Assembly (NCBI GenBank): GCA_040377305.1
Contig: JBEIPA010000014.1
Coordinates: 32,001 to 96,000, forward strand
DNA length: 64,000 nucleotides
Source of the DNA: Flavobacteriales bacterium
GTDB lineage: Bacteria; Bacteroidota; Bacteroidia; Palsa-965
Reading direction: 5' to 3'
Positions 40,859 through 63,659 of this stretch are shown piece by piece. Position 1 is the stretch's first letter; every line of letters starts with the position of its first letter. The translations under genes and the position numbers were made by a program. The notes under the pieces were generated by a model. The model was given only the letters and a program-made list of their open reading frames with translations, ran no database searches and was not told where the DNA came from.

Positions 40859-41506
40859 TTAGTGCATTATTTCGACTTGTTCAACGAAAATCCGTCCTTC
40901 TGAGTCGATAACACGACAGAAGTAGACTCCATCTGAGATAGATCCCGTAGAAATTTCGCTCGTGGATGTCATTGGAACACTTGTCATAACGACTTCTCCG
41001 ATCATGTTTACAATTTCAACCCGCACAATTGTACCCGCAGAAATTTGTACCGATAAGTTCTCTGAAGCAGGATTCGGAAATACGCGCGCATATATTTCAG
41101 GCAATGCCGGAATGTCGAGAACGGTTGAGACCTGAAACTGTAGAGTATCTTCATCATCAGCTTGAAAGCCCGGAGTGCAGTTTGGTATGCCGTAACCCGA
41201 ACTCAAGGTGAAGTACACGGTATAGTTGCCCGCGGTGAGTGGTGGAAACACCAAGGTATCTACGTCGTTACAGATAAACATAGCGGCGCCCATGCAATGC
41301 AGTGTGCTTCCGTAAATACTGTTTCCTACTACGGAGCCATAAGCTACGCCTGCGCAATTGCCTTGCGGAAATGTGAGATAAGCGTAGATGCGCACGGTGT
41401 CATTAGCATCTGGCATAGCAGGTGAAACTACCAGAGAATCGATCCACTGGGCCTTTGCGGCGAATGAGAACAATAAAATTGCGCTGAGTGTAAATAATTT
41501 TTTGAT
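40859..41506 (-). CDS. T9SS type A sorting domain protein; start codon uncertain (ATC at 41506)
   Basis: Signal peptide KKLFTLSAILLFSFAAKA and VFPNPA...GVYFCRV C-terminal domain. Confidence 0.75.
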   Translation of the reverse strand: MKKLFTLSAILLFSFAAKAQWIDSLVVSPAMPDANDTVRIYAYLTFPQGNCAGVAYGSVVGNSIYGSTLHCMGAAMFICNDVDTLVFPPLTAGNYTVYFTLSSGYGIPNCTPGFQADDEDTLQFQVSTVLDIPALPEIYARVFPNPASENLSVQISAGTIVRVEIVNMIGEVVMTSVPMTSTSEISTGSISDGVYFCRVIDSEGRIFVEQVEIMH

Positions 41507-54481: not shown

Positions 54482-55885
54482 TTACCCATCCATTCGCACG
54501 ATACGCGGACTGAACTTTCCTACGATGTCGACTAAATCAACTTGCGCCTCCATCACCTGAAAAATGTCTTTGTACGCATGTGGCGATTCATCCAGACCAC
54601 CACCGATTAACGTCACGTTATTTTCTTTCAGCACAGATTTCATCTCTGCATTCGTTACGTTTTTCATTGCTGCTGTACGCGACATTTTACGTCCCGCTCC
54701 ATGAGAAGCAGAGTTGATGGAAATGCTCGCACCTTTTCCGCGTACAATGAATCCCGGTGCAGTCATCGATCCCGGAATAATTCCGAGAACGCCTTTGCCG
54801 GCAGGTGTTGCACCTTTACGATGCACGATTACATCTTTGCCGTTGAATTTTTCTTTCCATGCAAAGTTGTGGTGGTTTTCTACCATCGCGATGGGTTCAA
54901 CACCAAGCGCAGCTGCAATCTTCTCGTGAATTTTGTGATGACACGCCGAAGCATAATCACCAGCGAGATTCATTGCAAGCCAATACTCTTGTCCTTCCTG
55001 AGTTGAAAGATCAAGCCACGCAAGATGTTTTGCTTCCTGCGGCAAACGACATTTCTCCATTGCCACTTTCGTGTAATGGTTCGCAATCGTTGCGCCAAGT
55101 CCGCGCGAACCGGAATGCGACAACAACGCGAGGTATCGACCTAATGGAAGATTGAACTCGTTGTTCTCATCGCTGATATCAACAACTCCGAATTCCACAA
55201 AGTGATTTCCCGAACCGGATGTTCCCATTTGCTTCACTGCTTTCAGCTGCAGACCTTTCAGCAATGGAATTTCATCGAACAACTTTCGGTCAGTCACTTC
55301 AAACTCTTTGTTCTCCTTGAACTCTTGTCCTGAACCAAAGAGTGTATTATCCGTAAGCACTTTGTAAAGTCCGCGCGAGTCGGTGTCGATGATCTCGTGC
55401 GGAGTCGGAAAAATACTCAGGCACATTCGGCAACCGATGTCGACGCCAACTCCATAAGGAATAATTGCGTTTTCCGTAGCGAGTACACCACCGATCGGCA
55501 ATCCATAACCCTGATGCGCATCCGGCATCAAAGCACCGGCAACTGCAACCGGCAAACGAATTGCCACATCCATTTGTTTACGCGCACCATCTTCGATCTG
55601 ATCTCCACCGTAAATTGCGTAAGATCCTTGTTCGATGCGCAATGCAATTTCGGGACCTTCCGCTTCTTTCGGCTTTTCCGTCAACGCATCCGCAATCGCA
55701 GCGAGGTTCGTGTCGTCGAGATAATCCGCAGGTGCAGCAAGAATATTTTTCAGCATCTCCATCACATCTTCACGTGATGATTTGCGGTAATACTTTTCAA
55801 TGATGTTGAGGGCAATTCCCACAACGCGTCCTTGTTTGTATCCAAGTTCGCGAAGGTGATCTCCGGTGATGTTTAATTTGTTCAT
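54482..55885 (-). CDS. rtcB: RNA 2',3'-cyclic phosphate/5'-OH ligase RtcB with N-terminal extension
   Basis: MPDAHQGYGLPIGGV, GVDIGC, GNHFVE, HSGSRG, HHN, HRKGATPA, PGSM, SHGAGR and DESPHAYK motifs. Confidence 0.96.
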   Translation of the reverse strand: MNKLNITGDHLRELGYKQGRVVGIALNIIEKYYRKSSREDVMEMLKNILAAPADYLDDTNLAAIADALTEKPKEAEGPEIALRIEQGSYAIYGGDQIEDGARKQMDVAIRLPVAVAGALMPDAHQGYGLPIGGVLATENAIIPYGVGVDIGCRMCLSIFPTPHEIIDTDSRGLYKVLTDNTLFGSGQEFKENKEFEVTDRKLFDEIPLLKGLQLKAVKQMGTSGSGNHFVEFGVVDISDENNEFNLPLGRYLALLSHSGSRGLGATIANHYTKVAMEKCRLPQEAKHLAWLDLSTQEGQEYWLAMNLAGDYASACHHKIHEKIAAALGVEPIAMVENHHNFAWKEKFNGKDVIVHRKGATPAGKGVLGIIPGSMTAPGFIVRGKGASISINSASHGAGRKMSRTAAMKNVTNAEMKSVLKENNVTLIGGGLDESPHAYKDIFQVMEAQVDLVDIVGKFSPRIVRMDG

Positions 55886-56514
55886 TTTACTAATTGTATT
55901 TCTTGTGTAACATAAATTCGAGGTTGTTCAACTTTATTTGTTGACTCGAATTTCATAGCGATGATTTCTTCGCAAGCGCGAGTAATGTGCACAACCATTT
56001 CATCGACATTAATATTTAATATCCCGTCTGCACGAAGAATTGTACCTCCACCTTGCGCATGTGAAAACCTGAGTTTGCCCTTTGGGGCAAAACAGTGAAC
56101 TAAGCCGCATCGCATTTCATCATATAGATCAAATGTTCCATTGGATTCTGCTTTTAAATACGCTCGATAATCCTTAAGAGATGCGAGATTCCGAATGGAG
56201 CGCTCAAAGTCCTCACGAACAGTGCCCGATTTATCCCAAACTGTTGGGGAATTTTCATTTATACACTTTCCGAAGAATTCAATTGCCGAACTCATGCAAA
56301 TTGCCCCGAGCCATGGCGATACTTTAACCACAGCTTGCATTTCGTCAATAAGTACAGTCCGCATAAATTGCTTAGTTGGAATGGGCATCTGCACAACAAA
56401 ATGTGATTTATCATCAGTAAAGCCAAAGACAACATTTTTCATTTGTTCATCCGTGAAAAGGTGCTTTCGTTGAAACTCTTGAAGGATCGATTGAACTGAT
56501 ATTTCTTTCATCAT
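55882..56514 (-). CDS. putative HEPN-domain protein
   Basis: SSAIEFFG helix followed by MRCGLVH (Rx4H); ATGA overlap with rtcB. Confidence 0.6.
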   Translation of the reverse strand: MMKEISVQSILQEFQRKHLFTDEQMKNVVFGFTDDKSHFVVQMPIPTKQFMRTVLIDEMQAVVKVSPWLGAICMSSAIEFFGKCINENSPTVWDKSGTVREDFERSIRNLASLKDYRAYLKAESNGTFDLYDEMRCGLVHCFAPKGKLRFSHAQGGGTILRADGILNINVDEMVVHITRACEEIIAMKFESTNKVEQPRIYVTQEIQLVK

Positions 56515-56552
56515 GATTATTCTATACTAATCAATTTACAAAATTTGTTTTG

Positions 56553-56623
56553 ACGACCGACAGGGATTCGAACCCCGATCCTCAGATTCGTATTCTGAGA
56601 TTCTTCCGTTGAACTATCGATCG
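56553..56623 (-). tRNA. tRNA-Arg(ACG), no encoded CCA
   Basis: CGATCGA/TCGGTCG acceptor, TCAGA-ATACGAA-TCTGA anticodon arm, GGTTCGAATCC T arm. Confidence 0.85.
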
Positions 56624-56630
56624 AAATACA

Positions 56631-56653
56631 GTGTCGGGATACGATCCCGACAC
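56631..56653. repeat. small palindrome GTGTCGGGAT-ACG-ATCCCGACAC (related copies near 58529-58553 and 58651-58671)
   Basis: 10-bp perfect stem; the motif recurs within this locus. Confidence 0.65.
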
Positions 56654-56656
56654 CTC

Positions 56657-56788
56657 ACAGGCAAAAAGCGAAAAGAGACTGTTTGCATTGCTCTACCACT
56701 GAGCTACACACAACTTTCGCTATGTGGCCGGATTCGAACCGGCGTCCCATGGATTGGAAGTCGAAGTAACTCTTTTCTACGGCACTGT
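56657..56788 (-). ncRNA. Y RNA of YrlA type (Y1): Ro-binding-like stem plus circularly permuted tRNA domain
   Basis: Order is T arm (GCCGGTTCGAATCCGGC), GAAA-capped acceptor stem (CACATAGC GAAA GTTGTGTG), D arm (TAGCTCAGTGGTAGAGC), enclosed by a terminal stem; lies near the TROVE gene. Confidence 0.88.
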
Positions 56789-56794
56789 TCATTG

Positions 56795-56868
56795 GGTGTT
56801 AGATCGGTTTCGATCCGATTACCTCTTGCTTCACAAGCAAGCGCTCTCCCGAGTGAGCTACAAACACC
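56795..56868 (-). tRNA. tRNA-His(GTG) with G-1:C73 and atypical T loop (ATCGAAA)
   Basis: CTTGC-TTGTGAA-GCAAG anticodon arm; 8-position acceptor with one mismatch. Confidence 0.8.
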
Positions 56869-56873
56869 GTGTT

Positions 56874-56957
56874 CAGTAGGCAGTTTGGCAGTAGTGCAGT
56901 TGGCAGTCAAAATATAATTCTCTGACTGCCTACTGCCCAACTGCTTACTGCCTACTG
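56874..56957. repeat. REP-like imperfect palindrome of GGCAGT units (second copy at 58336-58421)
   Basis: cagtaggcag...gactgcctactg arms; near-identical architecture in both copies. Confidence 0.75.
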
Positions 56958-56963
56958 TTCTTG

Positions 56964-57037
56964 TACTCTGTGTGGGATTCGAACCCACGTGATCTGGTCG
57001 AAAACCAGATATACTAGACCAACTATATGAACAGAGC
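56964..57037 (-). tRNA. tRNA-Glu(TTC), no CCA
   Basis: GCTCTGT/ACAGAGT acceptor, TCTGG-TTTTCGA-CCAGA anticodon arm, GTGGGTTCGAATCCCAC T arm. Confidence 0.85.
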
Positions 57038-57039
57038 CT

Positions 57040-57117
57040 GATTGATTTGCGGATGACGCGCCGGGTTCTCTCCTTTGGAGAGTTAGAGAGGCGCGGCGCG
57101 TAATCCGCAAATCAATC
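57040..57117. repeat. long spacer hairpin between tRNAs
   Basis: gattgatttgcggat.acgcgccg / cggcgcgt.atccgcaaatcaatc. Confidence 0.75.
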
Positions 57118-57122
57118 TTCAG

Positions 57123-57196
57123 TCGCGACAGCAGGATTCGAACCTACATCTTCTCCAGTCCAAGTGGAGAGGCTTAGCCAATTAGCCGACCTCGCG
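57123..57196 (-). tRNA. tRNA-Pro(TGG), no CCA
   Basis: CTCCA-CTTGGAC-TGGAG anticodon arm, GTAGGTTCGAATCCTGC T arm, C1:G72 and A73. Confidence 0.82.
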
Positions 57197-57285
57197 ATGT
57201 TGATTAGCTGATTTTTAATTTCTGATTTCTGATGCTGAAAGGTGTTACCCCAAGAGCTAATCAAAAATCAGCTAATCCTATTTAT

Positions 57286-57390
57286 TGTGAGGAAAAAATC
57301 ACAGAAAAGACGAAAGCGCCATCTTTCGATGTCAGGATTCGAACCTGTTTCTTCCTGCCACGAAGTATCTCTTCTGTTACGTCACTCACA
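57286..57390 (-). ncRNA. Y-like RNA Y2: shared scaffold plus T arm and GAAA mini-hairpin
   Basis: TGTGAG-TGACGTA-ACAGAAGAG-ATACTTCG...CAGGTTCGAATCCTG...CTTTTCTGT-GATTTTTTC-CTCACA. Confidence 0.78.
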
Positions 57391-57418
57391 AACTCAAAGA
57401 ACAAATTCAATTTCAAAA

Positions 57419-57513
57419 TAAGCGGGCAAAAGTCAATCAGAGTCTGCCGGGATTTGAACCCGCGTCTTTCGACTTTCTACCAAAGAAGTATCTCTGATTT
57501 ACGGCACCGTTTA
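57419..57513 (-). ncRNA. Y-like RNA Y3: shared scaffold plus D-loop-like TGGTAGA, GAAA hairpin and T arm
   Basis: TAAACGG-TGCCGTA-AATCAGAG-ATACTTC...CGGGTTCAAATCCCG...CTCTGATT-GACTTTTGC-CCGCTTA. Confidence 0.78.
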
Positions 57514-57523
57514 CTTTTAACTA

Positions 57524-58051
57524 TTATCTCGTCGGGATCTTCAATCCCATTTTCTTCATCGCAAGCAATGCTTCTGCATTTCCGATTGCGTCGTTGACCG
57601 GGTTGTGATCATGACGCGTTTTGCGAAACAATCGCTTCCACTCGCTGTTCAGTCCTCCATCCATTTTCATTCCACAATACAGATCACCGATTCGTCTGCC
57701 TGAAAATCCAAACGGATTTTTTCCCAGGTAGAAATGGAAGTAATAATTAATCCACTGCCAATCGAACGCGAGGTTATCGCTGATGAATATTGCTTTGCCG
57801 TCGGATGTTGCGTTCAACCATTCGGAGAAACGTTTCATCACTTCGGCGGGCTCCTCGAACGACTCGTGTTGCCCGCGTGTGAAACCACTTACTGCAAGTG
57901 CATCCGGAATCCATTCTTTGGAAATTGGTTGCGTCTTTCCGTAGAATGTTTTCGCGAGTGTGGGTTCTATCACCACTGCACCGAAGCAAACCATCGAATA
58001 TTTATTTGGGATGGGCCCATCGGCCTCTACATCCACTACTATGTAACTCAT
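57524..58051 (-). CDS. DEDDh 3'-5' exoribonuclease (Rv2179c/RNase AS-like)
   Basis: VDVEADGP, SDNLAFD and HNPVNDA motifs; likely start MSYIVVD. Confidence 0.85.
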   Translation of the reverse strand: MSYIVVDVEADGPIPNKYSMVCFGAVVIEPTLAKTFYGKTQPISKEWIPDALAVSGFTRGQHESFEEPAEVMKRFSEWLNATSDGKAIFISDNLAFDWQWINYYFHFYLGKNPFGFSGRRIGDLYCGMKMDGGLNSEWKRLFRKTRHDHNPVNDAIGNAEALLAMKKMGLKIPTR

Positions 58052-58083
58052 TTTGTTTTTGTTTTTAATCAATTTAATAATTT

Positions 58084-58156
58084 AAGCTGGCAACAAACTC
58101 GCAGAGGTTTTGGTCTAATTAACAGTTAGAAGTAACTCTGCAATACGGCACAGCTT
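58084..58156 (-). ncRNA. Y-like RNA Y4: minimal scaffold with only a short hairpin insert
   Basis: AAGCTG-TGCCGTA-TTGCAGAG-TTACTTC...CTCTGCGA-GTTTGTTGC-CAGCTT. Confidence 0.75.
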
Positions 58157-58214
58157 GCCGATGTGCCGATTTCCAATATGCCAATATGCCGATTGGAAAT
58201 ACCTCAATAAAATT

Positions 58215-58332
58215 CGGAAGCAAAAAACGATTCGGGTGGGGCGTCGCAATGAGGATTTGCACCTCTTCCTGGTTTTTACATCAGGACCCTTGCCCCCTGT
58301 CGAGCGAAGTATCCCGGCTCTACGGCATTCCG
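58215..58332 (-). ncRNA. Y-like RNA Y5: scaffold plus D-armless tRNA-like insert
   Basis: CGGAA-TGCCGTA-GAGCCGGG-ATACTTCG...TCCTGA/CCAGGA hairpin, GAGG-TGCAAAT-CCTC T arm...CCCGAATC-GTTTTTTGC-TTCCG. Confidence 0.75.
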
Positions 58333-58335
58333 TTT

Positions 58336-58421
58336 CAGTAGGCCGTTTGGCAGGCGTTCAGTAGGCAGTCAAAATTTATTCCTAATGACTGCCGACTGCA
58401 CTACCGCACTACTGCCTACTG
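58336..58421. repeat. REP-like GGCAGT palindrome, second copy
   Basis: Similar to 56874-56957. Confidence 0.72.
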
Positions 58422-58426
58422 ATTAA

Positions 58427-58646
58427 ACAACGGTAACTGGCAACAAGTCTGCTTTCTGCTTTCACAGAATACGGCCGTCCTATTTCTGTATTGCTACAGA
58501 CAGTTGACTGGTAATCATCATCCGCATGGTGTCAGGATCTGAAATCCTGATACTGCGCACTCAGATTAACGTTCGCGAACCACAGTTACCCGTGCATCAC
58601 TACCTTAGGACCGTTATCGAAGTATGACCCGTTTACGACACGTTGT
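58427..58646 (-). ncRNA. Y-like RNA Y6: scaffold plus about 170-nt insert containing 23S rRNA H69/H70-like sequence
   Basis: ACAACG-TGTCGTA-AACGGGTC-ATACTTCG-ATAACGGTCCTAAGGTAG...CGGCCGTA...GACTTGTT-GCCAGTTAC-CGTTGT. Confidence 0.75.
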
Positions 58647-58686
58647 GTGATGTCAGGATCCTATCCTGACAGTGCACATAATTTTT

Positions 58687-58696
58687 TCAAAGAACG
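58687..58696 (-). promoter_or_regulatory. boxA-like antitermination motif (CGTTCTTTGA); second copy at 57394-57403
   Basis: GTTCTTTGA occurs ahead of or inside the ncRNA blocks that follow TROVE and the exonuclease. Confidence 0.5.
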
Positions 58697-58766: not shown

Positions 58767-60281
58767 CTACAACTCGAGTTGTTTTATCATCGCGATTGCA
58801 TCTGTACCGTTTTCTGCAGCATACAATACGTCGAACACTTTATCTGACCAGCCCGCGATGAGTGTTACATCGTCGCGCTGCACACTGATTGGTGTGTTAC
58901 CGTAACCTGCGAGGTCGAACAAGTACAGTTTCGCCATTGGCGCAATCTGTTTGTATTCTTTCCACGCCGTCTGCAACGAATCACCGTCAGCTTTGGTATT
59001 CCACATCTGGCAGTCAGTGAACATCATCACTTTGTCCATCACAACATTGCGCTGAACAAGATCTTTGATCACCAGGTAACCATTTGTGGCGTAACCAACT
59101 TCACCTTCCCGCTTGTAGTACTCATCAACATTCGCAAGTACTCCACGGTTAGGCATGTTGATTACCTTCCAGCGATCTCCGAACATTCCGGAAACCACTC
59201 GTTCACACTTGCTCTGCATCAGCATACCCAGTACCAGACCGATATCGAACAAATACACTTTGCTCTTCGCCGAGATTGGTTTCTGCATTGAACCCGAAAC
59301 GTCACACGCAATCAACACACGTGTTTTGTAATCGAATCCGCTGATGTTTTTCGCTGAAGCTACAATTGCATCTTCCAGCGCGTTAAGTATCATCGACACG
59401 TAATCAGCTTTCAGCACTTTCACTTCACGGTATGCAGACAGGAAACGGAATGGCAACTGCTTCGATTTCGCAACCTGGTTTGCATCAGAAAGCGTATCAC
59501 ACACTTTTTTGATTGCATCCCATGATACACCCGCTTCAATCATGTTACGGATGTTACGCAACATCGCCATGTATCCCAGCTTACCGCTGAAGATCAGTTC
59601 TTCCCATTTCGCACGAACCGCAAGCTCTTTTGCTTTTGCATCAGCGAATTTTTGCTGACCCAAAGCAGAAAGTTCAGTTTCCCAGGTATAAGCAACAGAC
59701 AGCTCTTTCGCAGCGATCTTGTTGAAGACTGCTTGCTGTTCATCACTTTTCGCTTTCGGGTGAACAAGGAACAATGCATCACGCAACGTTACTGCCGCTT
59801 CACGGTTGTATTTCGAGAACTGGTATTCATCAAAACGATTGAACGCCTTTGCGAGTCCTTTCTGTACCTGTTTCGAAAGCTTGTTCAGTTTCTTAGTTCC
59901 CGAACGGTTGTTCGCCAGTTGGTAGTAAGCCAGAAGCTCAGTGATCTCATCAGCACGCTGAACGACACCGTTCACCGCTTTGGATACAACTATATTTCCG
60001 GAGTTACGTTTTGCAAGTTCGACTGCAAGCACCTGTGGAATAGAACGCATGTACATTTTGTTACGTGCATACACCGCAAGCTTCGCCACGAATTCAGCAT
60101 CTGTCTTCTCCATGAGATCCACGATACGTTGAAGACGCTCGTTTCCTTTCTCATAGAACGAATCGCTCAGTCCTGCGGTTACTACCGCTGAATACAGTTC
60201 GAGCTCAGGAGTCATTGCGAATGCTTTTGCGCCTTCGTAATTAGTGACTGCTGTTTTACGTTTGAAGATGTTGAATTTCAT
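58767..60281 (-). CDS. rsr: TROVE domain protein (Ro60/Rsr orthologue) with vWA domain
   Basis: NYEGAKAF, YARNKMYMRS, TWE, GYMAMLRNIRN, QLPFRFLSAY, MIDAS DVSGSM and AGWSD motifs. Confidence 0.93.
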   Translation of the reverse strand: MKFNIFKRKTAVTNYEGAKAFAMTPELELYSAVVTAGLSDSFYEKGNERLQRIVDLMEKTDAEFVAKLAVYARNKMYMRSIPQVLAVELAKRNSGNIVVSKAVNGVVQRADEITELLAYYQLANNRSGTKKLNKLSKQVQKGLAKAFNRFDEYQFSKYNREAAVTLRDALFLVHPKAKSDEQQAVFNKIAAKELSVAYTWETELSALGQQKFADAKAKELAVRAKWEELIFSGKLGYMAMLRNIRNMIEAGVSWDAIKKVCDTLSDANQVAKSKQLPFRFLSAYREVKVLKADYVSMILNALEDAIVASAKNISGFDYKTRVLIACDVSGSMQKPISAKSKVYLFDIGLVLGMLMQSKCERVVSGMFGDRWKVINMPNRGVLANVDEYYKREGEVGYATNGYLVIKDLVQRNVVMDKVMMFTDCQMWNTKADGDSLQTAWKEYKQIAPMAKLYLFDLAGYGNTPISVQRDDVTLIAGWSDKVFDVLYAAENGTDAIAMIKQLEL

Positions 60282-60327: not shown

Positions 60328-60348
60328 CTACGCAATGGTCTTGCGCAG
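60328..60348. promoter_or_regulatory. palindromic operator CTACGCAA-N5-TTGCGCAG upstream of the TROVE gene
   Basis: Matches 61490-61510; lies 8 nt from a -7-like box AACATTTG (60312-60319, minus). Confidence 0.72.
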
Positions 60349-60434
60349 TTCGATTTATTTTAACTTTTTGTTTTAATCGCCTGATTTTCAGTTGGCATTA
60401 ATTCGTTTTTTCAATCGCAACATTTATTGCGGCG

Positions 60435-60507
60435 TTGGAAAGGAAGGGCTCGAACCTTCGACCTTGTGCGTATAAGGCACGTGCTCTTACCACTGAGCTA
60501 CTCTCCA
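60435..60507 (-). tRNA. tRNA-Ile(TAT), rare anticodon, no CCA
   Basis: TGGAGAG/CTTTCCA acceptor, GTGC-CTTATAC-GCAC anticodon arm, GAAGGTTCGAGCCCTTC T arm. Confidence 0.85.
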
Positions 60508-60514
60508 AGTCTTG

Positions 60515-60586
60515 CGGCGCGGATTGGACTTGAACCAATATAATCTCCCTTAACAGGGGAGAGCTCTACCATTGAGCTACCAGGCC
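60515..60586 (-). tRNA. tRNA-Asn(GTT), no CCA
   Basis: CTCCC-CTGTTAA-GGGAG anticodon arm, ATTGGTTCAAGTCCAAT T arm, G73. Confidence 0.85.
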
Positions 60587-60591
60587 ATTTG

Positions 60592-60664
60592 CGGTAACGA
60601 TGGGATTCGAACCCACAACTTTCCGATAGACAATCGGACGCTCTAGCCGTTGAACTACGCTACC
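60592..60664 (-). tRNA. tRNA-Asp(GTC), no CCA
   Basis: GGTAGCG/CGTTACC acceptor, TCCGA-TTGTCTA-TCGGA anticodon arm, G73. Confidence 0.87.
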
Positions 60665-60669
60665 ATTTG

Positions 60670-60742
60670 TGGACAAGGAAGGAATTGAACCTTCATCTTC
60701 TGATCTTCAGTCAGCCGCATTCACCGCGTTTGCTACCTGTCC
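60670..60742 (-). tRNA. tRNA-Phe(GAA), no CCA
   Basis: GGACAGG/CTTGTCC acceptor, CTGA-CTGAAGA-TCAG anticodon arm, GAAGGTTCAATTCCTTC T arm. Confidence 0.8.
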
Positions 60743-60748
60743 GTTTTG

Positions 60749-60822
60749 TTGACCCACCAGGGCTCGAACCTGGAACCCCCACTTTAAAAGAGCGGTGCAT
60801 CTAACCATTGAGCTATGGATCA
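60749..60822 (-). tRNA. tRNA-Lys(TTT), no CCA
   Basis: TGATCCA/TGGGTCA acceptor, CCGCT-CTTTTAA-AGTGG anticodon arm, CCAGGTTCGAGCCCTGG T arm. Confidence 0.86.
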
Positions 60823-60834
60823 ATATTTCTTCGC

Positions 60835-60891
60835 TTGTCCTCCTTCGGCAAAGCCTGTGCTGAGCGAAGTCGAAGTGCTCAGTCTGACAAG
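60835..60891. repeat. Bacteroidota REP-like element (CTGAGCGAAGTCGAAG); complementary half CTTCGACTACGCTCAG near 60981-61010
   Basis: The two halves are complementary and bracket tRNA-Gln. Confidence 0.55.
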
Positions 60892-60894
60892 TCG

Positions 60895-60965
60895 TTGTCG
60901 GAAATGGATTTGAACCACTATAGCCAGATTCAAACTCTGGTGTCCTACCATTAGACGATCCGACA
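60895..60965 (-). tRNA. tRNA-Gln(TTG), no CCA
   Basis: TGTCGGA/TCCGACA acceptor (U1:A72), CCAGA-GTTTGAA-TCTGG anticodon arm. Confidence 0.86.
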
Positions 60966-61011
60966 TTCAGTGTGTTTTCTTGTCATTCTTCGACTACGCT
61001 CAGTATGACAA

Positions 61012-61043
61012 TAAAAAAACCCGGTCGTGTGCGGACCGGGTCT
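61012..61043 (-). terminator. attenuator terminator 2
   Basis: AGACCCGGTC-CGCACAC-GACCGGG-TTTTTTT; the 5' arm can alternatively pair with GTGGACCG (61081-61088). Confidence 0.8.
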
Positions 61044-61064
61044 AACAAATCAGTTCAACTGATT

Positions 61065-61154
61065 TCAGTTATGACAACATCGGTCCACGAATTTTCCTTT
61101 CTGAAAATCTCGTTCGCTAAAATTGGGCAAGGCTATATAACTATGTTTCTTCAT
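61065..61154 (-). CDS. putative leader peptide 2 MKKHSYIALPNFSERDFQKGKFVDRCCHN
   Basis: 29-codon uORF containing the antiterminator and ending about 20 nt before terminator 2. Confidence 0.7.
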   Translation of the reverse strand: MKKHSYIALPNFSERDFQKGKFVDRCCHN

Positions 61155-61254
61155 GGTGTTTCTTTCTCTTCAACTTTTTTATTGTCAGGCCGAGTAGTCA
61201 TTGCAGTCTGCGGAGCAACTTGTGCTTGAAGATCGACGTACCGAGGTCGGGCAA

Positions 61255-61284
61255 TAAAAAAGCCCCGAATCTCTCCGGGGCTTT
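61255..61284 (-). terminator. attenuator terminator 1
   Basis: AAAGCCCCGGA-GAGA-TTCGGGGC-TTTTTT; the 5' arm can alternatively pair with CGGGGT (61312-61317). Confidence 0.8.
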
Positions 61285-61307
61285 ACTTCAGTTATATCCT
61301 AAAGCAA

Positions 61308-61385
61308 TTACACCCCGTGCAACAGACGATCTCCTTCGAGATTTATCTGTTTGCGTGTTTGCGGATATGTAAAATGCTTTTTCAT
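61308..61385 (-). CDS. putative leader peptide 1 MKKHFTYPQTRKQINLEGDRLLHGV
   Basis: 25-codon uORF with an A-rich upstream region; its last codons form the antiterminator. Confidence 0.7.
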   Translation of the reverse strand: MKKHFTYPQTRKQINLEGDRLLHGV

Positions 61386-61404
61386 TTTTCTTCTTATTCT
61401 GCGA

Positions 61405-61412
61405 CAAATATA
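61405..61412 (-). promoter_or_regulatory. Bacteroidota housekeeping-sigma -7 box TATATTTG for the leader/tRNA transcript
   Basis: Perfect TAnnTTTG about 20 nt upstream of the leader 1 ATG. Confidence 0.65.
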
Positions 61413-61489
61413 TTGTAAAGAAATAATGCGATCCAAATTATTCTGCAATTATTTTTCATGATTTGCAGTATTTACTTCACTTTGTCCAA

Positions 61490-61510
61490 CTGCGCAAATA
61501 CATTGCGCAG
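61490..61510. promoter_or_regulatory. palindromic operator CTGCGCAA-N5-TTGCGCAG upstream of the WYL gene
   Basis: Perfect 8-bp arms; lies 7 nt from a -7-like TATCTTAG (61518-61525). Confidence 0.72.
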
Positions 61511-61545
61511 ATAATTCTATCTTAGATGAGCCAATCACGCACATC

Positions 61546-62574
61546 ATGCCGATAAACAAACTCGCACTCATCCGCTACAAGACAATTGATAACTGTCTGC
61601 AGAACCGTTTCCGCAAATGGACACTTGACGATCTAGTGGATGCATGCTCGCGTACACTGGAAGAGTTCGAAGGAATTACACAAGGAGTAAGCAAGCGTAC
61701 TGTTCAGCTCGATATTCAGACGATGCGCAGTGAAAAGCTAGGATACAATGCTCCTATTGTGGTCAGCGACAAGAAGTATTATTCGTACGAAGACAAGAAT
61801 TACAGCATCACGAATATTCCGTTGACGAGTCAGGATTTAGGAACGCTCACGGAAGTTGTAGATATTCTACGCCAGTTTAAAGGGTTCGGTTACTTCGAAG
61901 AGCTCAGCACAATGGTGAACAAGCTCGAGGACAAAGTGCAGTCTCAGAAGAACAAAGGTCGCTCGTATATACACTTTGAGAAAAATGATTTGCTAAAAGG
62001 TCTCGAGTACATCGAATCATTGCACAAGGCGATCATTCGTCAGAAAACGATTGACGTATTATATCAGTCGTTCAAAGCACGTGAAGCGACAAGCATCATT
62101 TTTCATCCTTATCTGCTCAAGGAATACCGCAACCGCTGGTTTGTGATCGGCTCAACGCAAAAGAAAACAATTCTTACTCTGGCACTGGATAGAATTTTTT
62201 CTGTGAAAGAAGTCGGTGGAGAGAAATACATCAAGAATACCTTCTTTGATGTTGACTCGTACTTTGATGATACGATTGGCGTTACGAAGAATCTCGGGAT
62301 TCGACCACAATTGGTCGTGATGAAAATTGATCGTACGAATGCGCCATACGTAATCACAAAACCGATTCACCACACGCAGAAGATTCTGAAGACAGAACCC
62401 GACGGAATGATTTTCAGTATTAACGTGACGTGGAATTTTGAGTTGGAAAGAGAAATCCTTGGGTTTGGTGAACAGATAAAGGTGTTATCGCCAAAGAGAT
62501 TGCAGAATAAGATTAGCTGGAGGGTGAAGAGGATGGTGGAGAGGTATGAGGAACTTCAACCAAATGAACGATGA
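61546..62574 (+). CDS. HTH-WYL-WCX transcriptional regulator
   Basis: SKRTVQLDIQ HTH, HPYLLKEYRNRWFV...LALDRI WYL core, ILGFGEQIKVLSP C-terminus. Confidence 0.93.
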   Translation: MPINKLALIRYKTIDNCLQNRFRKWTLDDLVDACSRTLEEFEGITQGVSKRTVQLDIQTMRSEKLGYNAPIVVSDKKYYSYEDKNYSITNIPLTSQDLGTLTEVVDILRQFKGFGYFEELSTMVNKLEDKVQSQKNKGRSYIHFEKNDLLKGLEYIESLHKAIIRQKTIDVLYQSFKAREATSIIFHPYLLKEYRNRWFVIGSTQKKTILTLALDRIFSVKEVGGEKYIKNTFFDVDSYFDDTIGVTKNLGIRPQLVVMKIDRTNAPYVITKPIHHTQKILKTEPDGMIFSINVTWNFELEREILGFGEQIKVLSPKRLQNKISWRVKRMVERYEELQPNER

Positions 62575-63659
62575 GCGGCAAAGTAAATTCATTTCACGAA
62601 GCAGTTCGAACGAGACCTGGCATGTATATTGGCAGATTGGGTCCCGCTGGTTTCGGTTATCTTGTCAGCGAACTGATTAGAGATTTTGCTGCTGACCTGC
62701 AAGCAAAAGAAGCGCATGTGAGGATCGACATAAAAGGGAAGGTCACAATTAAATTTCCCGAAATAAATTGCACTCAGGCTGACCTTTATACTTTAATAAA
62801 AAATGGTCGGATGAGTCGCAGTTCTTCATTTTGGAGGACATCACTTGCCATTATCCCGCCGTTATCAAAAGCGACCACGCTCAAAATCGGAAGCACTAAG
62901 TATACTGTCAGCCGCAACGCTAAACTTAATCCTCACTTCGAGTCCGATACCGCTAAAGCTATTTCACGATTTGAAATAACCTTTCAACCGGATGCAGGTA
63001 TTCTCAAAGCCAAAGCGCCTGAAATACTTACTTTATGTGCTCGCTTGCATGAGCTCACGGTGGTTTGTCCCGGATTAAAAATCACTTACCGTGATGACAA
63101 TACAAAACCATTTACGCAAATGGTCTGGCATACTCCTGAAGGAATACGCACACTATTGGCGCCGGCACGAAATATGTTTTATGAAAAGAAATTAGAAGGA
63201 GGTTTTTCCTTTAACGAAAAAGGACTACGCGGTGAGGTGTACTGGTTATGTGCAAACGGGGGATGTGATCCTATCTATTCATTTGCTAACGGTGAACGTA
63301 CTGTGAAAGGCGGATCGCATGTGAAAGGATGCGTACAAGGTATACTGGACGCGTTGAAGGATTTAGTCAAAGGAAATGGCGAGAAATATGACTTCAGTGT
63401 GTCTCGTGCAATCCGACATCAATGTCTCGTAGTTTCCGTTTGGGGAAACGGCCTAAGCTATGCGGGCAGTACAAAAGAATGTCTGGAACATAAACCTACA
63501 AACCAAATTCTCCGCAAACTTGTTGGTGCGCACATGGAGCAGCTGTGTGCGTCGAATCCAAAGGATGCTATACAACTTACGTATCGGTTGCAGAAATGGA
63601 ATCTTGCGGAGATGTATCCTGAATTGTATTCCGGAAAATCAAGGAAAAAGAAGAAGTAA
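62571..63659 (+). CDS. degenerate GyrB/ParE N-terminal-like protein (GHKL-like plus transducer, no TOPRIM)
   Basis: AVRTRPGMYIG, ITFQPD, RLHEL...PGLKI, SFANG..T..GGSH..G and YAGSTKE motifs; lacks DNGRG and GLHGVG. Confidence 0.78.
   Translation: MSGKVNSFHEAVRTRPGMYIGRLGPAGFGYLVSELIRDFAADLQAKEAHVRIDIKGKVTIKFPEINCTQADLYTLIKNGRMSRSSSFWRTSLAIIPPLSKATTLKIGSTKYTVSRNAKLNPHFESDTAKAISRFEITFQPDAGILKAKAPEILTLCARLHELTVVCPGLKITYRDDNTKPFTQMVWHTPEGIRTLLAPARNMFYEKKLEGGFSFNEKGLRGEVYWLCANGGCDPIYSFANGERTVKGGSHVKGCVQGILDALKDLVKGNGEKYDFSVSRAIRHQCLVVSVWGNGLSYAGSTKECLEHKPTNQILRKLVGAHMEQLCASNPKDAIQLTYRLQKWNLAEMYPELYSGKSRKKKK

Follow-up and report, generated by a model that had tools for sequence, protein, structure and literature searches.

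A conserved palindrome at RNA-repair promoters of Bacteroidota, predicted to be the operator of a WYL-domain regulator

We analysed a 64,000-nucleotide stretch of DNA from a Flavobacteriales bacterium (contig JBEIPA010000014.1; referred to as the window, with its coordinates used throughout), part of a 5.18 Mb genome. The window carries two copies of a 21-bp palindrome, box 1 at the promoter of a gene for a TROVE/Ro60 protein and box 2 at that of wyl, which encodes a WYL-domain regulator. The comparisons described below show that the two palindromes are real and that the element is conserved in Bacteroidota, and they suggest that it is likely the operator of a WYL regulator of RNA-repair genes. 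We regard binding of the box by the WYL protein as very probable, and the explanation as a whole, a WYL operator from which a DriD-like activator serves RNA-repair promoters, as probable.

Both palindromes are located exactly where a preliminary description of the window had placed them. Box 1 (CTACGCAA-TGGTC-TTGCGCAG, 60328-60348) is followed after 8 nt by the element AACATTTG on the minus strand (60319-60312), directed into the TROVE gene (ATG 60281). Box 2 (CTGCGCAA-ATACA-TTGCGCAG, 61490-61510) is followed after 7 nt by TATCTTAG on the plus strand (61518-61525), directed into wyl (ATG 61546). The boxes themselves have no strand. In a search of the whole genome with the perfect form CTGCGCAA-N5-TTGCGCAG, these two were the sole sites with zero and one mismatches, and spacers of 3, 4, 6 or 7 instead of 5 gave no site with fewer than two. 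A scoring matrix trained on 65 distinct sites, all from other genomes, likewise ranked the pair first in the genome, with 30.3 bits for box 2 and 29.1 bits for box 1, followed by 20.7 and 18.8 bits for the third and fourth sites; the top score in 1000 shuffles of the intergenic region was 13.7 bits. A separate shuffle test used a pattern derived from these two sites and is circular. The third-ranked site (C46:44833) was rejected because it overlaps a stop codon and has no TTTG at 12 nt, and the fourth (window position 41350) because it lies within an open reading frame (ORF). No Rfam family corresponds to the box. A sigma-70 promoter scan performed at chance level, the promoter type found here being outside its coverage.

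The box is conserved upstream of wyl orthologues. Its consensus is CTRCGCAR-N5-YTGCGYAG, or CTRCGCA-N7-TGCGYAG when written as half-sites (65 sites). Among the first 30 loci compared, one of which is a cut contig, every one of the 14 intact orthologues that have upstream DNA (53-100% identity) is preceded by a box at a distance of 54-99 nt. The box was found upstream of none of 14 paralogues with at most 37% identity, nor at a 52% copy with an internal stop. A further 80 loci gave a box upstream of wyl in 78, within 150 nt in 68, and the two misses have just 260 and 503 nt of upstream DNA. Twenty-eight loci were outside the training of the matrix; 24 of these have a box of at least 15 bits within 1.5 kb and two have a TG variant, while the remaining two lack a box within 1.5 kb and have strict matches 3-5 kb away in their genomes. 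In one genome (loci L016 and L137 of G036) no box accompanies the WYL orthologue, which is interrupted by an internal stop, and a box in the target layout persists before TROVE on another contig. The orthologue occurs in 30 of 251 sampled genomes and is present in cultured strains of Dyadobacter, Mucilaginibacter, Pontibacter and Solitalea.

The position of the box relative to the promoter differs between its two sides. Across 140 boxes, TTTG begins exactly 12 nt away on the target-facing side in 97, at 11 nt in one and at 13 nt in three, whereas on the wyl-facing side it stands at 12 nt in only three. Box 1 has the target type of layout, with TTTG beginning 12 nt past it and AACATTTG as the -7 box, and a strict-pattern scan found no other target-type promoter in this genome. 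We therefore rejected the equivalence of the two boxes, the TTTG register being fixed towards targets and the spacing variable towards wyl. The preliminary description had given 7-8 nt from each palindrome to its -7 box; the distances are correct, but the alike geometry conceals this difference. The Bacteroidota -7 box is described as TAnnTTTG at positions -12 to -5 (PMC9723704). Placed accordingly, the TROVE promoter is predicted to start transcription at about 60307, compared with about 60305 in the preliminary description, and box 1 would span -41 to -21.

In addition, the -7 box of the target promoters is itself altered. The TA is present in four of 100 target promoters, compared with 23 expected from single-base frequencies, and exactly one of the two bases is kept in 90; the box of the TROVE promoter is without its T. 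The deficit survives clustering (2.8 compared with 10.1 expected in 44 clusters at 80% identity, and 1.4 compared with 4.5 in 18 clusters). It peaks at the -7 offset, falls to 8 compared with 14 one base earlier, and is seen nowhere else, and the dinucleotide at this position switches many times along a tree of the orthologues built with FastTree. In contrast, of 17 ordinary tRNA promoters examined in this genome 15 have the TA, and it is enriched four-fold before TTTG upstream of ORFs.

The genes behind these promoters are predominantly those of RNA repair. Of 30 related loci with TROVE, 24 have a box no more than 110 nt from this gene and 29 have one within 2.5 kb; for rtcB the corresponding numbers are 16 and 28 of 33. 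Where gene order is rearranged, additional box copies travel with the RNA-repair genes. Counted by locus, box promoters are associated with RtcB (47), TROVE (26), Band-7 (17), RlaP (7), S24-like (7) and Pnkp (6) genes, and more rarely with Hen1 (4), the exonuclease (3) and Thg1 (2). The first ORF behind 89 target-type promoters is RtcB in 36, TROVE in 26, Band-7 in 13 and Hen1 in three, and RlaP, Pnkp, Thg1, a T4-type ligase and an RF-1-domain (PrfH-like) gene are found further downstream.

The preliminary description did not state whether control would be positive or negative. We infer that WYL probably activates its target promoters, because the box stands at a near-fixed distance upstream of the -7 element, over the spot where a -33 element would be, because this element is missing and the core is suboptimal, and because the predicted protein structure matches DriD first. 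Promoters of DriD, as described in PMC13004042, have a 21-bp site at a fixed distance, a missing -35 element and a suboptimal core. The model of the WYL protein (predicted local distance difference test (pLDDT) 84, predicted template modelling score 0.57) has helices with a wing at residues 5-60. A structure search ranked DriD (E 8e-15) ahead of PafBC, and these ahead of BrxR and CapW (about 1e-8); the DriD match (Z 15.8, 279 residues, root-mean-square deviation 12.8) compares with 13.2 for BrxR. [quoted passage not shown] Helices are predicted at 95-109 and 115-136, between the winged HTH and the WYL domain, and pLDDT is below 60 around 101-150. A single-sequence search of the PDB was marginal.

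Alternatively, the protein could be a repressor like CapW or BrxR, which on the box would cover the -33 region of both promoters and leave upon binding a ligand. Both of these proteins have the same winged HTH-WYL-WCX layout, and the box at -41 to -21 falls in the polymerase footprint. The wyl promoter, with its TA intact and its loose spacing, is what a repressor would permit and could be repressed by such occlusion. However, a repressor could work without a set distance to TTTG and without any damage to the -7 box, and target promoters that lack the TA argue against occlusion. The model also aligned over 279-302 residues when DriD and PafC were compared at full length, and over 172-222 for BrxR and CapW. 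We consider it unlikely that the protein is such a repressor.

That the WYL protein, and not another factor, reads the box is strongly supported by conservation, by co-occurrence and by covariation between the recognition helix and the box. The same evidence strongly supports the earlier proposal of a WYL-controlled internal promoter for the TROVE, Y RNA-like and rtcB part of the locus. The regulator, predicted to consist of a winged HTH, a helical bundle, WYL and WCX (342 amino acids, 61546..62574, plus strand; PF13280 and PF25583 above cut-off), is the sole WYL-domain gene found in a search of its own genome. Of 16 genomes that have a close orthologue, 11 contain the strict pattern of box, 12 nt and TTTG, compared with none of 45 that lack one (counts that take in this genome and G012). 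In the phylum sample of 251 genomes it occurs in 11 of 30 with an orthologue and one of 221 without, and a reversed control pattern matched one of the 251.

The predicted recognition helix is K50-R51-T52-V53-Q54-L55. R51 is invariant and Q54 is found in 121 of 123 alignment rows (three of these being one contig fetched twice); the other two rows have Arg, as do three relatives found later. All five Q54R orthologues have the box STGTGCAA-N5-TTGCACAG, in which C1 is changed to T in both arms (CG to TG) at five of five loci, and this is the base predicted from the DriD structure, where Glu40 reads C1. If instead another factor, such as an alternative sigma factor or a LexA-like repressor, read the box and wyl were a mere member of the regulon, a box before wyl would be equally expected, and the S24-like gene in seven loci also speaks for this reading. 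Yet box and orthologue co-occur, both arms change with helix residue 54, and a 21-bp dyad is unsuited to a sigma factor; we judge such a factor improbable. It is very improbable that the palindrome serves mainly in recombination or at the RNA level, for instance as an insertion site for a tRNA array, and not as a transcription signal: five genomes of the genus do have wyl-type box copies on either side of the inserted array, but the box is conserved where no array separates the genes, keeps its fixed distance to a promoter element, and would not be part of the target RNA since it lies upstream of the predicted transcription start.

Several observations count against a DriD-like activator acting at this operator. 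The basis is sequence comparison and a predicted structure, with 14% identity to DriD; the ranking of folds divides activators from repressors modestly; and the helix was matched to DriD by residue pattern, not by residue-level readout. Kin among the loci and genomes are not independent. The five Q54R orthologues form one clade, so that their covariation amounts to one event, and position 50 changes as well, while two Q54 loci (L166 and L167) have one arm changed to TG. The strict pattern escapes 19 of the 30 orthologue genomes, two of the 11 matches in the set of 16 genomes (G016 and G053) are on the wyl-facing side, and its sole match outside orthologue genomes (G066) adjoins a 30% paralogue, so that boxes of this kind are not confined to the clade. 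The spacing is 13 instead of 12 in five nearer relatives (G001, G008, G016, G051 and G053). Finally, several held-out loci, including L144, L146, L147, L151-L153 and L163, have a box without TTTG at 12 nt. The loci just named form one family in which the box is kept and TATCATT replaces TTTG at -7, possibly reflecting another promoter type or target.

Towards wyl, 38 of 68 loci have a TAnnTT element 14-15 nt from the box; in this genus the distance is 6-7 nt. Because this distance varies, wyl lies outside the activating register, as does its own -7-like element with its intact TA. In the account of PMC13004042, the promoter of DriD carries a site for this protein, which nevertheless does not regulate itself. 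With such variable spacing, autoregulation of wyl, as proposed in the preliminary description, is not established. Many lineages have a single shared box between the divergent genes, as in DriD. In 44 pairs from two-box loci, the separation is 100-102 nt in 22, 111-114 in 14, 119-123 in five and 88-94 in three, in phase with a period of 10.5-11 nt (p about 0.002-0.003 on distinct values, with the period picked among several and related kin included). The keeping of both copies suggests two roles, one for wyl and one aiding the target promoter. Box 2 was rejected as a driver of the tRNA array described below, since its minus-strand side has no TTTG at 12 nt.

We propose that the palindrome is the operator of the adjacent WYL protein, which would, as a homodimer resembling DriD, activate an RNA-repair regulon. 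The target promoters would be nearly silent until a nucleic-acid fragment binds the pocket of the WYL and WCX domains; CTRCGCA-N7-TGCGYAG would then be occupied by the two winged helices, which would assist the housekeeping polymerase in starting. The genes driven from box 1 would be TROVE, the Y RNA-like array, the exonuclease, four tRNAs and rtcB. Box 2, off the activating register for wyl, would repress wyl weakly or be neutral, and as the second of a back-to-back pair it may aid the target promoter, since box pairs are helically phased.

The nature of the ligand is more speculative. DriD, PafBC and CapW are described as sensing single-stranded DNA. In the pocket that binds it, Y173, K177/R179 and R216 are kept here (Y173, K177 and R179 being matched by motif), while Tyr192 is replaced by Phe199, Arg204 by a hydrophobic residue at 210, Arg207 by Ala213 and Tyr240 by Thr or Ser at 247. 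These replacements are not proof of an RNA ligand, because Bacteroidota paralogues show similar ones. It is possible, though less likely than not, that the WYL activator senses broken RNA, such as fragments of tRNA or rRNA that end in a cyclic phosphate or a 5'-OH, and not single-stranded DNA. On this tentative reading the protein might be a phylum-wide functional replacement of RtcR and might activate by rescuing a crippled -7 element belonging to the housekeeping sigma factor of Bacteroidota. Just as tentatively, the protein might in this genus be coupled to a ribosome-sensing tRNA array inserted between duplicated operators.

The predicted transcript from box 1 is on the minus strand and begins with the gene for the TROVE/Ro60 (Rsr-like) protein (58767..60281; PF05731 above and vWA_Ro60 below cut-off). 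This is followed by six Y RNA-like repeats (56659..58646) with an exonuclease gene and three tRNAs among them, then tRNA-Arg, a 210-amino-acid ORF and the RNA ligase gene rtcB (54482..55885; PF01139), likely the last gene; a terminator-like hairpin lies beyond it at 54469-54443. The exonuclease is an Rv2179c-like 3'-5' exoribonuclease (57524..58072; PF16473), and the tRNAs, for Pro, Glu, His and Arg, lie within 56552..57196. The ORF (55882-56514) has no Pfam match, is absent in G007 and G015, and has one partial relative, in L103. Right behind TROVE, and behind several other box promoters, stands GTTCTTTGAA (58686-58695, minus strand), which we take to resemble a boxA antitermination signal.

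The Y RNA-like repeats begin GUGCCGUA...GAKWUACUUC, and their conserved parts are located at 58619-58641, 58305-58333, 58129-58151, 57485-57507, 57362-57385 and 56763-56785. The motif is found in 25 of 30 loci with TROVE and one of 50 without, in up to four copies per locus. One copy matches YrlA (RF02553) with an E-value of 2.5e-6 and 39.8 bits, below the gathering score of 69, and the last repeat overlaps this match; the YrlA motif GNCGAAN0-1G reads GNCGUA here. The single-strand folds are individually weak (z -2.05 to 0.51). One criterion for Y RNAs is to share the strand of Ro60 at a distance of up to 4 kb (PMC4201824), and the repeats are so placed. With a motif that tracks TROVE and a YrlA match under the gathering score, the Y RNA label is a putative one. 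The repeats are likely members of a Bacteroidota Y RNA family that the Rfam YrlA model scarcely detects. Long imperfect hairpins of GGCAGT/ACTGCC units occur between the RNA genes (56872-56957 and 58334-58422), and similar units recur close to other tRNAs and in a tRNA array beyond the window, described below.

Between the two boxes lies an array of tRNAs for Gln, Lys, Phe, Asp, Asn and Ile (60434..60965, minus strand) that is absent from this position in more distant relatives. Its consensus promoter, TTTG-N21-TATATTTG (61405..61437, minus strand), has no box in register, and its -7 element aligns across six genomes of the genus. Two candidate attenuators on the same strand precede the tRNAs. 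The first (61259..61385) consists of a 25-residue leader ORF (61385-61308) and a terminator-like hairpin (61284-61259), and the second (61017..61154) of a 29-residue leader ORF (61154-61065) and another terminator-like hairpin (61043-61017). The first leader peptide is kept in all six aligned genomes of the genus, and a short second ORF with a DR motif near its end is also found in six of six. Beside the 3' end of tRNA-Ile is CGCAA-N6-TTGCG (60416..60431, no strand), apparently the decayed and presumably non-functional relic of an ancestral second box. At the corresponding position G015, G013, G001 and G008 have full boxes of 22-24 bits, and in G024 the box abuts the tRNA. As judged from these comparisons, the tRNA array, with its own promoter, is inserted between two once back-to-back boxes in this genus.

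The preliminary description had proposed that the locus has two inputs. The array does have its own promoter and two pairs of leader and terminator, but it is lineage-specific, and most relatives lack it. A terminator scan found nothing between tRNA-Ile and TROVE, and read-through from the upstream array is a plausible second input; the candidate attenuators would, we infer, depend on the ribosome. The tRNA-Ile (60434-60507, minus strand) has a UAU anticodon and also occurs in the arrays of G007, G015, G001, G008 and G051. Isoleucine tRNAs with this anticodon are uncommon in bacteria. A further array, of 20 tRNAs, lies directly downstream of a box-driven rtcB in G051 (L129, 15-1763) and recalls the stress-induced tRNA operons of cyanobacteria.

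Other features surround this locus, and the RNA-repair island as a whole spans approximately 16 kb. A truncated GyrB/ParE-like ORF of 362 amino acids (62571-63659, plus strand) overlaps the stop codon of wyl; it is missing there in G007, G013 and G001, where a metallophosphoesterase gene directly follows wyl. Just beyond the window (L136, 3295-9815; G000:C7:96294-102814) are a second tRNA array (Leu, Tyr, Leu, Ser, Tyr), the genes for an RNA ligase and an HD-AAA protein, and a second rtcB with an RF-1-domain (prfH-like) gene. No WYL box was found at any of these, neither at the tRNA array nor at the second rtcB operon or the pair of RNA ligase and HD-AAA genes.

For Bacteroidota, these predictions name a specific regulator together with its operator, its promoter design and its regulon; in the literature consulted, control of Ro60, Y RNA and RtcB operons is that by RtcR and sigma-54. 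A WYL protein with mostly RNA-repair targets and four changed DriD contact positions is a test case for the reading of RNA damage by this domain, and the natural Q54R/TG variant offers a ready specificity-swap system. Our literature search found no description of the box, or of WYL control of rtcB or TROVE in Bacteroidota. A 2016 survey of RNA repair by Burroughs and Aravind may mention WYL genes next to such operons.

Among known systems the closest likeness is to DriD of Caulobacter crescentus, which has the winged HTH-helical bundle-WYL-WCX fold predicted for the WYL protein and binds ATACGAC-N7-GTCGTAT. Here too there is a 21-bp dyad whose half-sites are separated by 7 bp and which has CG in the corresponding position and, in many copies, TACG, at a fixed distance to a -10-type element and over a missing -35/-33 element, and a regulator divergent from its target that often shares one site with it. 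In DriD, R37 reads G2, E40 reads C1 and R41 reads the C4 pair, according to PMC10853764. Arg37, Thr38 and Glu40 correspond to Arg51, Thr52 and Gln54 here, while Arg41 has no counterpart (Leu, Ala, Met or Ser at position 55) and CA takes the place of AC at the inner bases. The DriD core CGXC-N7-GXCG is thus replaced by CGCA-N7-TGCG, and because of this core and of position 55 the WYL protein is not a DriD orthologue by specificity. Besides the low sequence identity, it differs from DriD in having RNA-repair instead of DNA-damage genes as targets, in the crippled -7 box itself, and in the second, helically phased box of many loci.

PafBC of mycobacteria, which gave the best PDB sequence-profile matches, is likewise a WYL-WCX activator of suboptimal promoters. 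It is described in PMC13004042 as a heterodimer with a non-palindromic site that needs polymerase for binding to DNA. Unlike PafBC, the system described here has one gene and a palindromic box. CapW and BrxR are winged HTH-WYL-WCX dimers that bind inverted repeats and are often divergent from a defence operon. They repress, however, and match the structure less well, and the promoter layout found here points to activation. The regulon itself is most like that of RtcR and sigma-54 in the Salmonella rsr-yrlBA-rtcBA operon, which also comprises Ro60, Y RNA and RtcB and is activated through a ligand-binding domain, with damaged tRNA as the signal in the account of PMC7790460. RtcR is a CARF-domain enhancer-binding protein for sigma-54, whereas here a WYL protein would act at housekeeping-type promoters. 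A search for RtcR (PF06956) gave no match in five genomes, with a positive E. coli control. WYL may fill, in these bacteria, the role held by RtcR and sigma-54 in enterobacteria.

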